From assembly GCA_033763455.1 (NCBI GenBank), contig JANRKO010000043.1, positions 64,001 through 128,000 of the forward strand: 64,000 nt of DNA. The letters are read 5' to 3'. The DNA comes from Polyangiaceae bacterium. GTDB lineage: Bacteria; Myxococcota_A; Polyangia; Polyangiales; Polyangiaceae. The notes under the pieces are model-generated. The model saw only the letters and a list, made by a program, of their open reading frames with translations, made no database searches and was not told the DNA's origin. Below are positions 50,501 through 57,196 of this stretch, piece by piece. The first letter of the stretch is position 1. Each line of letters starts with the position of its first letter. Position numbers and translations under genes: made by a program.

Positions 50501-51097
50501 TTAGGGCTTCTTTGTTGCCGAAACCCGTGCATAATCTTCTGCCGCACGTTCGAGCATGATGGAATCGCGGGCGGCGCGTTCAGCTTCGGCCACAAGCTTT
50601 GCGGTGAAGAGGGTGAGCCCCCAGATGCCGTTTTCAGGGCGCACACGAAACGGGTAGCGGGTACCCCTGGCTGTTTCAACACTTGCGCGGTCAGCAGTTT
50701 GCTCAACGCGCGCTACTCCGGAAAGATCTCGCCGGAGGCGGTTCAACCAACCTTCCTGCCTAGCGTAGATCGCAAAAACGTCAGCCCCGTCTGGAGCGTT
50801 CGCGATGGATGCGTATTCGGCAGCGAGCCGGCTGCGCTCAGGTTCGGGAAAAGTAGCGAGAATGCGCGCGAGCGAGCGTTTTCTGTAGTCACGAATGCTA
50901 TAGCACGCGTGCTGCGCTGGGGTTTCGAGGTACGCAAAGAAGTCCTCTGGCCGTCCGGTGTTGACGGCCTTCACGATGCGCAAATACGCGCCAGTTGGCG
51001 TCTTGTCGCTCGGGTAAGTGAGAACTTCGACGAGTGCAACTGCGCCCACGGAGAGCACCAAAATCCCCGCCACGAGCCAGCCGATCTTGCGATTCAC
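50501..51097 (-). CDS. hypothetical membrane-anchored protein
   Basis: N-terminal TM segment; 198 aa. Confidence 0.65.
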   Translation of the reverse strand: MNRKIGWLVAGILVLSVGAVALVEVLTYPSDKTPTGAYLRIVKAVNTGRPEDFFAYLETPAQHACYSIRDYRKRSLARILATFPEPERSRLAAEYASIANAPDGADVFAIYARQEGWLNRLRRDLSGVARVEQTADRASVETARGTRYPFRVRPENGIWGLTLFTAKLVAEAERAARDSIMLERAAEDYARVSATKKP

Positions 51098-51246
51098 CGC
51101 GCAAAGCTACCACTCGCAGTGCCGGGCCACAACGCGCTGATGCGCGCCTTTTGGCGTTCGAAAGCTTCGCTTTGGGTACGCCGCGTGGGCGAGGTCAGCC
51201 TTTGCTTGCGCTTCTGCCGCGCCGGGGAGTATCAGTGGCGCCAACG

Positions 51247-52035
51247 ATGCGAAACGCCGCCAAAATCGCCGTGATTGTGCCGGCTTTCAACGAGGAGCGC
51301 CTCATCCGGCGGACGCTTTCTGGGATGCCTCCGTGGGTGGACGCGATTATTGTCGTAGACGATGCGAGTCAGGATCAGACGCGGCATCAGGTAGCCAAAG
51401 TCACTGACCGACGCGTGCAATTGGTAGTGCACGAACGCAACTTGGGCGTGGGGGCAGCAATCGCCACAGGGTACCGGCGAGCACTGCGGGAGAGCATGGA
51501 TGTGATGGTTGTCATGGCGGGCGACAACCAAATGGATCCGGATGACCTGGGGCTCGTAGTGGGGCCCATTTTGGATAAGCAAGCCGATTACGTGAAAGGT
51601 AATCGCTTCGTTCACCCCGAGGTTCGCCGTATGCCTTGGTTAAGGCGTCTGGGCGGGCGGTATTTGTCTGCGCTCACACGCCTCACCACTGGCCTTCCAG
51701 TTCATGATGCGCAGTGTGGCTACACGGCGCTTGGGCGGAGCATGTTGGAGCGTTTGCCGCTTGAAAGCCTATGGCCCAGCTTCGGGTACCCGAATGATCT
51801 TCTCGCGCTCTTGGCGGGGGCTGGGGCCAAGGTGGCGGAAGTGCCCGTGCGCCCGGTCTACGCTGAAGAACGGAGTGGGATCCGCGCTTGGCATGTTTTG
51901 ACAATCACGCGTGTGATTTTGAGCCGTTGGTTTGCAGCCCGTCGCCGCTCTTCACTTCACCGAAACGTGAACGTGCGTGCTCTCGTAATAAACCCAGTCG
52001 AAACCTGCGGTGACAGCGAGCCCCGCCAGGCGTGA
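51247..52035 (+). CDS. GT2 glycosyltransferase
   Basis: VPAFNEE, VDDASQD, NLGVGAAI, GDNQMDP, KGNRF and DAQCGY. Confidence 0.9.
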   Translation: MRNAAKIAVIVPAFNEERLIRRTLSGMPPWVDAIIVVDDASQDQTRHQVAKVTDRRVQLVVHERNLGVGAAIATGYRRALRESMDVMVVMAGDNQMDPDDLGLVVGPILDKQADYVKGNRFVHPEVRRMPWLRRLGGRYLSALTRLTTGLPVHDAQCGYTALGRSMLERLPLESLWPSFGYPNDLLALLAGAGAKVAEVPVRPVYAEERSGIRAWHVLTITRVILSRWFAARRRSSLHRNVNVRALVINPVETCGDSEPRQA

Positions 52036-52542
52036 AAGTTTGCTGTTGGAGACGTCGGAAGTGGTCACATCGGCGGCGCGTCCTGCATAGTGCAGGCTCC
52101 CCGTGCCGTGTTCCAATTGCTCGTCCCATGCCTCGGTGATACGCAGTTTGGTACCGGGCCACTCCTCGGCGACCTTCTCAGAAAGAAGGGCCAACTTCTC
52201 GCGCAAGCGCGGAGACATCACCAGATCGGCCCCCGTTCTTTCCTCGTCCTTGAAAACCCATGCCTCTCGATCGCCTCGCACCAAGCGCTTGAAGGATTCG
52301 GAACCGCGCTCGACTCGCTCCAGCAACGGCCCTGAGGCTTCTCTCTCGGACGTGGCTGGGAAAAATTGCCCAGGGAGCAAGCGGCGCTGCTGATCGCGAC
52401 GGGCCGAGAGGCTCGGACCATCACCCGAATCACAGCCGGCAGCACTCAGCCCAAAACTGGCCACAGACAGCGCAAGCAATCCCCATCCGCACAAAAGTTT
52501 CGGGCGTGGAATTGCTGGAAATACTCGCCAAAGAACGGGCAT
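51952..52542 (-). CDS. Hedgehog N-terminal signalling-domain (HH_signal) lipoprotein
   Basis: FKDEERTGAD, WPGTKLRITEAWDE, SLHYAGRAADVTTSD and LAVTAGFDWVYYESTHVHVSVK match Shh-N motifs; lipobox-like AAGC; start at ATG 52542 (alternative TTG 52584). Confidence 0.92.
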   Translation of the reverse strand: MPVLWRVFPAIPRPKLLCGWGLLALSVASFGLSAAGCDSGDGPSLSARRDQQRRLLPGQFFPATSEREASGPLLERVERGSESFKRLVRGDREAWVFKDEERTGADLVMSPRLREKLALLSEKVAEEWPGTKLRITEAWDEQLEHGTGSLHYAGRAADVTTSDVSNSKLSRLAGLAVTAGFDWVYYESTHVHVSVK

Positions 52543-54010: not shown

Positions 54011-57000
54011 GTGCTGGCCGTCCGTAAGGATCTTGAGAGATCCATGGACGACCGCGGGAAATCCAAGAGCACGGGTCAGCCCGGCGAAGTCCCCAAGCTG
54101 AGTCGTGTGGAACCGCCAGCGCCCAAGACCAATCTTGGTCTGGGTCTGCCCCCCAAACTCGCCGCCGCATCCCTTTCGGGAGCCAAGGCGACGCCGACTT
54201 CGGCAGCTGGTGCCCCCCCGAAGCTGAGTGACTTGCTCAAGGGAAGTCCAAAGCCAGGTTCACCGCAGATGCAGAAGGCGAGTCGGGTCACCAGGCCTGT
54301 CGCTGAGCCGAAGCCAGTCGCGGAGGCGCCTAAGGTTACGGTCGGGCAAGCGAAGGTAATCGCGGAGGCGCCTAAGGTTGTGGTTGAAGCGCCTAAGAGA
54401 CATACTCAGGCTAACGCCTCACGCCCAGCCGCTTCCGTGTTTGGCAAACCGATCCCACCGCGTGCGCACTCCGTGCCCCCTAGGCCACAGACAGAGCCAG
54501 CCGTCCTCGCAGTGGGAAGCGATGACGCCATCTTGGTGGCGTTAAAAGCAGCTCTGGCACGTCACGGCGTGTTTGTCGAATCGGCCGAAGCGGGATCGGT
54601 GGTGGAAACGGTGATTGCTGCCGCACCTGACCTCATCCTGTTGCTTGGGGATGCCGCCAAAGACTGCGGGCGTGCAACGCTAGAGAAGCTCAGTGCTTCC
54701 CCGCAGAGTTCGGTCGTACCAGTGGCGATCATGGACGACAACATGGCGCTGGACGCCAGGCTGCAGGCGTTCCGTTACGGGGTTACGGCGGTAATACCCA
54801 GATCTGCAAGCATTGACGCGATCGCCGAGAAAGTTGCGCGCTTAGCCAAGGAGATCCCTTACCGCGGGACGGATAGCCCCGAGATGGTTGGTGAATCCAC
54901 GCTTGAAGAGTTCGTTGCTGCCCTGAGCTCGGAGCTCCGGACAGGGATCTTGAGCGTCGGCGGAGCGGAGACGCCCCCCGACCAGGCGATCCGTTTGGTA
55001 CTTGGCGGCGGTAAGCTTCTTGCGGAGTTTGTGGACGATTTTGTGAAGCGCGTTCGCACGCATGTGGTCTCGGCCGAGCCGCTTACGTACGAGTTCGACG
55101 AACGCGCTGGGGGAACGCTCGGACTGCTTGGGAGCGATTCGAAGGCTAAGCTGCCCGTGAGTGTCAAAGGCCTACGTCTGGCTTTGGCCGATAACGATGC
55201 GGCCCGCGCAGACACGGTGGCGCAGGAGTTGCGAAGCCACGGTGCGCAAGTTTTCGTTATCGATCTTTCTCCCAGCGAAGCGAGGCTTTCCAAGCTCAGG
55301 CAGCTAGATCCAGCGGTGCTTCTGATCGGAGAAAACCATCTAACGGGTGAAGGCCATGAGCTTGTCCGACGTATGCGCCGGGACGCGAGGTTGCGCTGGG
55401 CGTCATTGTTGGTGCTGCGTTGGGACGAGCTATTTGCCGATCCCCATGAAATGCCCATCGTAGAGAGGCTTTCGAGTTCCCTCGCGACGCTGGTGGAGCC
55501 GGAGCGGTCCTTGCTTGAACGTGCCAACAGCGGGTTGGGTTTTGATACGCGGTTGGAGACCACTGGCCCCGCTCGCTTGTTGCGTGGGCTGAAGGGTTGC
55601 TCGCAACTCCTGCGGCTAAATATTAACAATCCCCGTATCAACGTGGCGTTGGATGTTGCCGAGGGGCTCATCGTTGGAGCAAGCGCCGTCGTCATGAGTC
55701 CGGTTCCAGCTCAGCTTTCGGGGCCATTAGCCCTGGCCGCGTACTTAGTGCTGGGCTCGGGTCGGGTGCACGTAGAGCGAGCTGCTGCCGCCGCCGACGC
55801 AAACATCATGGCCACCATTGATGTGGCGTTGGACTTGGCGGAGGCGGAAACTCCGCCAATCTCGCCTTCGATTCCGGCGCCCGCGCGAGCCGTCGAACCG
55901 GTTGCAACCCCTTCGGTGCCCCCTCTGGGGAAGCTGCCGGTATTCGACGTCCCCGATCCGCCGCCCATGCCGGTATCTATGGCCGCGCCCGTGCGCGAAC
56001 GTCCACCACCGCCGAGTGCGCAGGCACAGGTTCCTTCCGTCATCGTGGCGAGCGCGGTCAACGTCGATCCTTCCCTCGACCAGGAATTTCGGCGCGAGAG
56101 TCCTGGTCGCAATCAGCGGAAACCGGAGGCGCGCATTGGCTGGCAAATGGGGGTTCTCTGGTCAGTTTTGGGGGTGGTGCAGTTAGCCTTGGCCGCGGGG
56201 GTCGTATTGGCAGTGGTGCGAGTAATGCGCGGTTCATCGCCTGCCGCCGCCGCGAGCGTCGCTGTCGTCGAAAAGGCCACCGTAGGTGCTGCTGTGCAAC
56301 CCCCGAAGGGTCCCGAGCCCACCGAAGTACAACCACAGCCCTCCGTCGCGTCGGCTGCGCTTGGGCAACCCCCGTCAAAGCAAGATCCCGAACCTCCTCC
56401 GCCCGCGCAAGTGGCGGAAGCGAAGTCGGAGCTCATGTTCCCAAGGGCCGTACAGGCTCCCACCTGCGAGTTTTTGCTTGAGCACGCCGAGGCGCCACGA
56501 GGCGGCTTTTCTAAGGATTCCAGTGTCGCGTTGGGTGAGGGGCACAAGGCGCTCGTGAAGGGCAATGTCGACGCGGCGCAGACGGCGTTCTGCCGGGCAG
56601 CCATGTTGGACGCCGCCAACCCCAGAGTGCAGCTTGCTCTTGCACAGCTGCTGATTCTGCGCGGCGACGGAACGCAAGGTGAGGCAGTAGCGAGTCGAGC
56701 GTTGGCGCTGCACGGCGAAACGGCCCGCGCCAAGGGGCTCCTCGGAGACGCTCTTATAATCCGCGGAGATCTTGATGGCGCACGCGCTGCCTGGTTGGAT
56801 GCTGCCGGCCTGACAGCAAGTGACGCGGCGGCCATTCAGAAGCTTACGGAGCGAGCGCTGTGGGAAGGGGAGGCATCCGTGCGCAACAAGGACTACGCTC
56901 GCTCGGAGCGCTTTTTCTGGCGTATGTTGGCCTTTTTTCGCGACGATCCAGATGCCAATCTTGGCATGGCCCGAACCTACCTCTACCGCGGCGACCTAGA

Positions 57001-57196
57001 GCGAGCCCTCAGCTGGGCACGGCGCAGCGTGCGGCTGAGCCCCGATGCCCCACGCGCCCGAGTTGTGCTCGGTGACGTACTTTTGCGTTCGGGCGACGCA
57101 AAAGCTGCAATCTTGGAGTGGCAAGCGGCACAAAGGATAGACCCCAAGAGCCTCGAAGCGAAGGCTCGCTTGGAGTCCGCAAACAAACTGAAGTAA
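54011..57196 (+). CDS. large membrane protein: Pro-rich region, receiver-like domains, TM segment and TPRs
   Basis: AAAPDLILL and LDPAVLLI receiver-like segments, one TM, multiple TPR-like helices. Confidence 0.75.
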   Translation: MLAVRKDLERSMDDRGKSKSTGQPGEVPKLSRVEPPAPKTNLGLGLPPKLAAASLSGAKATPTSAAGAPPKLSDLLKGSPKPGSPQMQKASRVTRPVAEPKPVAEAPKVTVGQAKVIAEAPKVVVEAPKRHTQANASRPAASVFGKPIPPRAHSVPPRPQTEPAVLAVGSDDAILVALKAALARHGVFVESAEAGSVVETVIAAAPDLILLLGDAAKDCGRATLEKLSASPQSSVVPVAIMDDNMALDARLQAFRYGVTAVIPRSASIDAIAEKVARLAKEIPYRGTDSPEMVGESTLEEFVAALSSELRTGILSVGGAETPPDQAIRLVLGGGKLLAEFVDDFVKRVRTHVVSAEPLTYEFDERAGGTLGLLGSDSKAKLPVSVKGLRLALADNDAARADTVAQELRSHGAQVFVIDLSPSEARLSKLRQLDPAVLLIGENHLTGEGHELVRRMRRDARLRWASLLVLRWDELFADPHEMPIVERLSSSLATLVEPERSLLERANSGLGFDTRLETTGPARLLRGLKGCSQLLRLNINNPRINVALDVAEGLIVGASAVVMSPVPAQLSGPLALAAYLVLGSGRVHVERAAAAADANIMATIDVALDLAEAETPPISPSIPAPARAVEPVATPSVPPLGKLPVFDVPDPPPMPVSMAAPVRERPPPPSAQAQVPSVIVASAVNVDPSLDQEFRRESPGRNQRKPEARIGWQMGVLWSVLGVVQLALAAGVVLAVVRVMRGSSPAAAASVAVVEKATVGAAVQPPKGPEPTEVQPQPSVASAALGQPPSKQDPEPPPPAQVAEAKSELMFPRAVQAPTCEFLLEHAEAPRGGFSKDSSVALGEGHKALVKGNVDAAQTAFCRAAMLDAANPRVQLALAQLLILRGDGTQGEAVASRALALHGETARAKGLLGDALIIRGDLDGARAAWLDAAGLTASDAAAIQKLTERALWEGEASVRNKDYARSERFFWRMLAFFRDDPDANLGMARTYLYRGDLERALSWARRSVRLSPDAPRARVVLGDVLLRSGDAKAAILEWQAAQRIDPKSLEAKARLESANKLK

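Follow-up and report, generated by a model that had tools for sequence, protein, structure and literature searches.

Bacterial proteins carrying a Hedgehog-type domain (BacHh) have been described in print as larger proteins of which this domain forms the C-terminal part (Roelink 2018, PMC6027127; Jagers and Roelink 2021, PMC8052667). In those of Rhizobium and Bradyrhizobium the domain is situated behind three transmembrane helices, the published conservation between BacHh and Sonic hedgehog (Shh) excludes the N-terminal Ptch1/heparan-sulfate region, and BacHh is presumed by Roelink to be a peptidoglycan peptidase (PMC6027127, PMC8052667). Neither 'lipoprotein' nor 'lipobox' occurs in the article text of PMC6027127 and PMC8052667. 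Within such article text no description of a lipoprotein BacHh was found; the supplementary sequence list of PMC8052667 lies outside this scope and might include such forms. Here we describe a Hedgehog-like gene from a Polyangiaceae bacterium (assembly GCA_033763455.1, contig JANRKO010000043.1, positions 64,001 to 128,000; the whole stretch of 64,000 nucleotides is referred to as the window, and coordinates are positions within it). A first-pass annotation of the window had called the product a Hedgehog homologue and had likened its N-terminus to that of lipidated Shh. The protein resembles published BacHh in its high similarity to the N-terminal domain of Shh (ShhN), its zinc motif, most of the calcium ligands, its end at ...SVK and its patchy, accessory distribution. 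However, unlike published BacHh it belongs to a stand-alone form of about 180-200 amino acids with a lipobox Cys and a tether bearing the motif P-x-L-[SA]-[KR]; here, in 196 amino acids, the domain has nothing ahead of it but a signal peptide and a tether of 18 residues. This predicted lipid-anchored, stand-alone form is a variant of the known BacHh peptidase family. We consider it likely that the protein is a LAS/M15-type zinc peptidase of the BacHh branch, made as a lipoprotein and probably acting on peptidoglycan, and that its N-terminal likeness to Shh arose by convergence.

The gene reads from an ATG at 52542-52540 to a stop codon at 51954-51952 on the minus strand and encodes 196 amino acids, as taken from the list of open reading frames (ORFs) and their translations. 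A start at an in-frame TTG (52584) would lengthen the product by 14 residues; the ATG is preferred because the closest homologues (197 amino acids) agree with it. The product matches the Pfam profile HH_signal (PF01085) over positions 5-161 of 161 with 157.5 bits against a cut-off of 22.1 (E 3e-46), and Peptidase_M15_3 weakly and below its cut-off (E 4.4e-4). Its best matches among PDB sequences are human SHH, DHH and IHH (HMMER E 1e-39 to 8.5e-43, approximately 50% identity). An AlphaFold model built with 53 family members has a mean predicted local distance difference test (pLDDT) score of 90.4, with values of at least 90 from residue 51 onward and of about 65-86 in the signal peptide and tether (tether about 75). 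The top Foldseek matches of this model are again SHH, DHH and IHH, with a root mean square deviation of 1.0 A over 146 columns at about 51% identity; the next fold class comprises MepA, LdcB/VanY and endolysins at 13-18% identity and template modelling (TM) scores of about 0.35-0.42. Alignment to human SHH (7e2i_G) pairs the zinc ligands H151, D158 and H192 with H140, D147 and H182, the catalytic E187 with E176, and the stacking His pair H145 and H190 with H134 and H180. All six of these residues are invariant across the 53 rows of the family alignment (A1). Five of the six acidic ligands of the Hedgehog-type double calcium site, as listed in PMC8052667, are present (E100, E101, D106, E137, D140), the sixth, at the position of SHH D131, being Gln. 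The stop codon follows directly after ...HVHVSVK, there is no Pfam match to Hint in the protein, and among 52 longer homologues Hint was found only in rows named as animal or unnamed. The homology call of the first-pass annotation is borne out by these matches, on which the gene is a true Hedgehog-N homologue.

The precursor begins MPVLWRVFPAIPRPKLLCGWGLLALSVASFGLSAAG and, if cut before C37, continues with the mature N-terminus CDSGDGPSLSARRDQQRRLLPGQFFP; the range 52360-52542 corresponds to residues M1-F61. The residues quoted in the first-pass annotation, a hydrophobic signal followed by a lipobox-like AAG-C, agree with the translation. A helix is predicted at residues 19-34 of the signal peptide in the AlphaFold model, and the listed homologues have comparable hydrophobic stretches at their N-termini. 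To classify the signal, a lipobox rule was coded in the style of the PROSITE pattern PS51257; it was satisfied by the Hedgehog-like protein and by 94 of 120 listed homologues, which are the best 120 of the 625 found in a near-length search. Scanning the same 120 for a Cys 50-75 residues ahead of an FKDEE anchor, with at least five residues before the Cys, recovered a lipobox Cys in 115, preceded at -1 by G (60), A (44), S (6) or another residue (5). The five rows without it have only 43-62 residues ahead of FKDEE; four of these are apparently shortened at the N-terminus, and the fifth (P0092) has a Cys at residue 3 that was passed over by the five-residue rule. The Cys is also invariant in 53 of 53 rows of alignment A1, and the residues flanking it vary freely among the listed homologues. 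Moreover, the organism's own genome, which is 93.7% complete, contains two Lgt matches (214.6 and 157.7 bits) and an LspA match (115.1 bits), all above cut-offs. Adjacent lgt and lspA genes were observed there on the same strand of contig C47 (118481-119977), with the second lgt on contig C11. The pattern rule and this conservation point to a protein made as a lipoprotein, in which the lipobox Cys is a feature of the family.

This form of the gene has a restricted distribution. From a collection with one genome per species, 80 loci were kept of 111 confirmed. A Cys behind a hydrophobic stretch was present at 47 of 51 loci labelled as Myxococcota (Polyangiaceae, Polyangiales, Myxococcales, 'delta' and the like), at 4 of 6 vaguely labelled loci, and was absent from all 23 loci with other labels (Alphaproteobacteria, Paenibacillus, Flavobacteriia, Micromonospora, Pirellulales, Blastocatellia, Clostridia and Longimicrobium). 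The lipoprotein form is essentially confined to genomes labelled Polyangiaceae or Polyangiales. Among sampled genomes of the phylum, PF01085 itself was present in 16 of 401; within the organism's family, and apart from its own genome, in 2 of 29. The gene is accessory.

The claim that the Cys lies 22 residues before a Gln in both proteins was confirmed on human SHH (7e2i_G; also P0210), where the distance from Cys24 is the same as in the Hedgehog-like protein. Measured to the invariant Pro of Q-x-x-P, the distance in the Hedgehog-like protein is 25 residues. Among 114 bacterial rows this distance clusters at 25-28 (25 in 30 rows, 26 in 19, 27 in 21 and 28 in 16; range 17-36), with 25 as the mode; for animal rows it is 25 in 18 of 20, and 21 in Nematostella. 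The tether, counting the Cys, is 18 residues long, which is also the modal length among the bacterial rows (30/114; range 10-29). HMMER and MAFFT both pair PSLSARR with RGFGKRR, which places C37 two residues upstream of Cys24; in these alignments the equal spacing results from two compensating gaps. The conservation of Cys and spacing that the first-pass annotation expected among homologues was thus found, and a predicted lipid-bearing Cys as the first mature residue, with a tether of similar length, is a real likeness to Shh at the level of the family.

The finer resemblances fared differently. A CxxGxG start is present in the mature N-termini of both SHH and the Hedgehog-like protein, as had been noted, but it recurs in only 3 of 115 bacterial relatives; it derives from a common tether stretch, G-D-G-(A)-P-[SG]-L-S, and there is no fixed motif tied to the Cys. 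What is conserved in the bacterial tether is P-x-L-[SA]-[KR] (P in 88, L in 109, S or A in 96 and K or R in 97 of the 114 rows), which is missing from bilaterian rows, where Y or S and G stand at those places. In addition, every one of the 114 bacterial rows has Asp or Glu among residues 2-7, against 0 of 20 animal rows, and 19 of the 114 have K or R there. Like the rarity of CxxGxG, this acidic start argues against a specific likeness to Shh. The parallel drawn between RRDQQRR and the heparan-binding basic cluster of Shh was not upheld, since basic and acidic residues balance in the bacterial tethers (mean K+R 3.7, D+E 3.7), against 6.0 and 0 in animals. The heparan-sulfate patterns of Cardin and Weintraub are XBBXBX or XBBBXXBX, where B is a basic residue. 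R48 R49 D Q Q R53 R54, read from the sequence, is BBXXXBB and fits neither. A strict regular expression for these patterns was discarded, as it matched 0 of 20 animal rows and was unusable as a control. Hhat is reported to need, besides the N-terminal Cys, at least one basic residue among the first seven (PMC8061759); the mature start CDSGDGP has no K or R and two Asp, and falls outside this substrate rule. Both the CxxGxG start and the Cardin-Weintraub-like look are coincidental and peculiar to a single sequence.

Tether similarity was also examined with profiles under shuffle control, in both directions. A hidden Markov model (HMM) made from the 114 bacterial tethers was applied to 58 distinct animal tethers with 200 shuffles of each; Shh reached 1.0 bit, a score equalled or exceeded by 63 of its 200 shuffles. 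Conversely, an HMM of animal N-domains was applied to the bacterial rows, with their real tethers or with 100 shuffled tethers. The real tether contributed a mean of 2.86 bits to the bacterial scores versus 2.10 bits for shuffled ones, and for the Hedgehog-like protein itself +5.4 bits versus a shuffled mean of 3.8, 17 of 100 shuffles equalling or exceeding the real score. Neither direction revealed a similarity to Shh specific to the order of residues in the tether. One animal sequence is of separate note: the Hedgehog of Nematostella vectensis (P0159) reads SSR-PSLS-RR after its Cys and fits the bacterial P-x-L-[SA]-[KR]. The PSLS motif was not found in three other probably non-bilaterian rows (P0285, P0316, P0395). 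A search for further cnidarian Hedgehog N-termini yielded 120 rows, mostly from fish and arthropods, among which only P0316 and P0395 looked non-bilaterian.

A tree of the core domain, with the tether excluded, was built from 135 rows and 146 columns by a quick IQ-TREE run. The 25 canonical animal rows fall on one side of a branch with a support of 98 in the Shimodaira-Hasegawa-like approximate likelihood ratio test (SH-aLRT), and their point of attachment is a bacterial polytomy, next to a form fused to Pesticin. A group of 59 rows (support 84) contains the 43 lipoprotein rows. Constraining the animal and lipoprotein rows to group together costs 19.8 log-likelihood units, with p = 0.348 in the approximately unbiased (AU) test; the tree neither supports nor rejects a grouping of animals with the lipoprotein clade. 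The proposal that Hedgehog N-terminal lipidation may have a bacterial lipoprotein counterpart, by homology or convergence, is therefore sustained in part: the family-wide Cys and its spacing stand, the finer motifs do not, the profile tests are negative for Shh, and the tree does not decide between homology and convergence. Three rows of a different make-up, probably eukaryotic, were also seen (P0225, P0229, P0236), in which HH_signal is joined to LDL-receptor class A domains and, in P0236, also to Hint. P0225 and P0229 lie inside the 59-row group among bacterial rows, apart from canonical Hedgehog.

Some observations weigh against the reading of a lipid-anchored peptidoglycan peptidase that came to resemble Shh by convergence, and they concern its lipidation, its substrate and its tether in turn. 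Lipidation is deduced from a pattern rule and conservation, the lipobox has Ala at -3 in place of the canonical Leu, and the best Lnt match in the organism's genome reaches 113.8 bits against a cut-off of 132.9. This Lnt candidate is a CN_hydrolase ORF of 322 amino acids that overlaps an ORF of 212 amino acids lacking a Pfam match (L082, contig C6 529288-532809), and may be a split, frameshifted or divergent lnt. These points leave room for a Cys that merely lies near a type I signal-peptidase site or in a membrane anchor, with a soluble periplasmic or secreted peptidase as the product. However, we regard this as very unlikely, given that 115 of 120 homologues keep the Cys, that 110 of these carry G, A or S at -1 while the flanks vary, that the pattern matches in 94 of 120 and that lgt and lspA are present. 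As to the substrate, all-against-all clustering of ORFs across 52 loci gave synteny within sub-clades only and no conserved neighbour beyond the closest relatives that could serve as a clue. Capture by a myxobacterium of an animal Hedgehog N-domain, complete with signal peptide and Cys, would agree with the roughly 50% identity to animal proteins and with the patchy distribution in the phylum and family. Against this, the query has matches at E <=0.001 in 708 clusters formed at 50% identity, named loci occur in many bacterial phyla, bacterial domain architectures are diverse, and all 110 rows labelled bacterial (of which P0225 and P0229 are probably eukaryotic) lie outside the 98-supported canonical animal branch, which makes such a reverse transfer improbable in the extreme.

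The tether bears on the question of descent. Under shared descent, animal Hedgehog would come from a transferred lipoprotein-type BacHh gene, with the Cys and the tether length homologous; the lipobox, with its small residues at -3 and -1, would serve as a cleavage site for signal peptidase I of the endoplasmic reticulum, leaving the same Cys at the N-terminus for later lipidation by Hhat. Transfer of BacHh into a cnidarian ancestor has been argued by Jagers and Roelink 2021 (PMC8052667). The order of parts is the same on both sides (signal peptide, Cys, tether, L-x-x-[GK]-Q-x-x-P, domain), as is the commonest Cys-to-Pro distance, and the AU test tolerates the grouping. The Nematostella tether CSSRPSLSRRGRRP, with its PSLSRR, scores 11.5 bits against the bacterial-tether HMM, equalled or exceeded by 1 of 200 shuffles, and in the reciprocal comparison the real tether outscored at least 95 of 100 shuffled ones in 14 of 114 bacterial rows where about 6 would be expected, a slight excess. 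In addition, the Pfam HH_signal profile, which is animal-built and has the Hedgehog Cys as its position 1, starts earlier in 42 lipoprotein forms (median 12; 13 or lower in 28) than in 38 other bacterial forms (median 19; 13 or lower in 5), and for 4 of the 42 its alignment sets the lipobox Cys opposite the Hedgehog Cys. However, Nematostella is the sole standout among 58 animal tethers tested, the tether order is unlike that of bilaterian Hedgehog beyond Cys and composition, the residues after the Cys are acidic throughout the bacterial rows and in no animal row, and the animal rows attach beside the Pesticin-fused form and not the lipoprotein group. N-terminal anchoring also looks easy to evolve: among unplaced rows, P0246, P0250 and P0255 have, by eye and without a call from the rule, a Cys whose surroundings resemble a lipobox and whose tether is shorter (50-56 residues ahead of FKDEE), and P0191, P0282 and P0298 have membrane anchors lacking a Cys. 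Similar spacing is to be expected under convergence too, because a short flexible tether is generic for lipoproteins. Convergence of the lipidated Cys is therefore favoured, and shared descent appears unlikely. Its most specific form, in which the palmitoylated Cys of animal Hedgehog is a relic of a bacterial lipobox, the donor a Polyangia-type lipoprotein BacHh (tether of about 18 residues, domain ending in SVK) and PSLS[KR] of Nematostella a trace of it, is likewise doubtful.

On the favoured reading of a convergent lipoprotein peptidase, the precursor would be exported by Sec, Lgt would put diacylglycerol on Cys37, and LspA would cleave before it, making the lipidated Cys residue 1, which Lnt might then N-acylate. 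The enzyme would hang from a membrane on its tether of about 18 residues with P-x-L-[SA]-[KR], and such a short lipid tether would yield by convergence both a Cys as first residue and a similar tether length. In Myxococcus xanthus a Lys at +2 is reported to mark inner-membrane lipoproteins (PMC3222651). Since Lys stands at +2 in none of the 114 rows, the outer membrane is the more likely site, if the +2 rule can be extrapolated across classes. Bacterial fusions of HH_signal involve Amidase_2, Amidase_3, Glucosaminidase, GH25, Phage_lysozyme, Pesticin, VanY, YkuD_2 (of the L,D-transpeptidase fold) and PG_binding_1. Together with the intact zinc and catalytic residues, these fusions to cell-wall enzymes suggest a peptidoglycan peptidase, and the Hedgehog-like domain most likely cuts peptidoglycan peptides, either of the cell's own wall or of its prey's. 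A separate fusion protein was noted in a Polyangiaceae metagenome-assembled genome (P0174, at locus L052), with 1127 amino acids, two HH_signal domains and Amidase_2, Glucosaminidase, PG_binding_1 and DUF2272/CHAP; the whole is a cell-wall hydrolase that combines several enzymes around the Hedgehog-like domain.

Set beside animal Hedgehog (SHH, IHH and DHH; PDB 3ho5, 3n1g, 1vhh), the protein shares the fold, the zinc and catalytic residues, a signal peptide followed by Cys as residue 1, and the distance from Cys to domain. It differs in having no Hint/Hog autoprocessing domain and hence no cholesterol, in a lipidation that would use Lgt and LspA (a thioether-linked diacylglycerol) and not the MBOAT enzyme Hhat, in acidic residues after the Cys where animals have Gly, Pro or basic ones, and in Gln at the place of SHH D131. 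With LAS/M15 peptidases (MepA, 1u10; LdcB/VanY, 4jid and 4ox3; Ply500, 2vo9) it shares the H-x6-D...H-x-H zinc site, although these are far more distant in sequence and fold and are without the Hedgehog-type calcium site. A large, mostly Polyangiaceae clade has the part order of mature ShhN, with a predicted lipidated N-terminal Cys at about the same distance, and gives the origin of Hedgehog N-terminal lipidation a concrete bacterial counterpart, whichever of descent and convergence accounts for it. The protein is also small and tractable enough to serve for finding out what substrate is cut at the conserved zinc site of Hedgehog. Should the likeness be purely convergent, the gene would encode an unexceptional cell-wall peptidase on a lipid tether, from an accessory family.

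Features of the Hedgehog-like gene and of its neighbours in the window
Feature	Position	Strand	Basis or remark
Whole gene, predicted lipoprotein-type BacHh zinc peptidase precursor, 196 amino acids	51952..52542	-	ORF, translation, Pfam, homologues of 197 amino acids
Signal peptide, residues 1-36	52435..52542	-	Translation; n-region R6, R13, K15; hydrophobic core 16-33
Lipobox A34-A35-G36-C37	52432..52443	-	C37 codon 52432-52434; predicted lipidated residue 1 of the mature protein
Tether, residues 38-54, DSGDGPSLSARRDQQRR	52381..52431	-	Would join the lipid anchor to the conserved domain
Tether motif P-x-L-[SA]-[KR], here PSLSA then RR, residues 43-49	52396..52416	-	Column counts, 114 bacterial rows
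Hedgehog-N / LAS-type zinc peptidase domain, residues 55-196	51955..52380	-	Starts L-x-x-G-Q-x-x-P, ends ...HVHVSVK
Zinc/catalytic span	51967..52092	-	H151 52090-52092; D158 52069-52071; E187 51982-51984; H190 and H192 51967-51975
DUF3108 protein, 424 amino acids	52613-53887	-	Directly upstream, about 70 nucleotides from the Hedgehog-like gene; adjacency only in the three closest relatives
GT2 glycosyltransferase ORF	51034-52035	+	Convergent; overlaps the 3' end of the Hedgehog-like gene by 84 nucleotides as called
1061-amino-acid protein, Pro/Ala-rich N-terminal part, C-terminal tetratricopeptide repeats (TPR)	54011-57196	+	Kept beside the locus in L002, L003 and L058

No NCBIfam family was matched by the Hedgehog-like protein or by its DUF3108 neighbour. 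Five genes of the window, encoding the DUF3108 protein, the GT2 enzyme, a protein of 198 amino acids, a rhodanese and the 1061-amino-acid TPR protein, are shared with the three closest loci alone (L002, L003, L058). In the clustering of 52 loci, which included many spurious overlapping ORFs, a protein of about 1200 amino acids was found at 10 loci, and a GT2-like gene at 8 loci belonging to two sub-clades.

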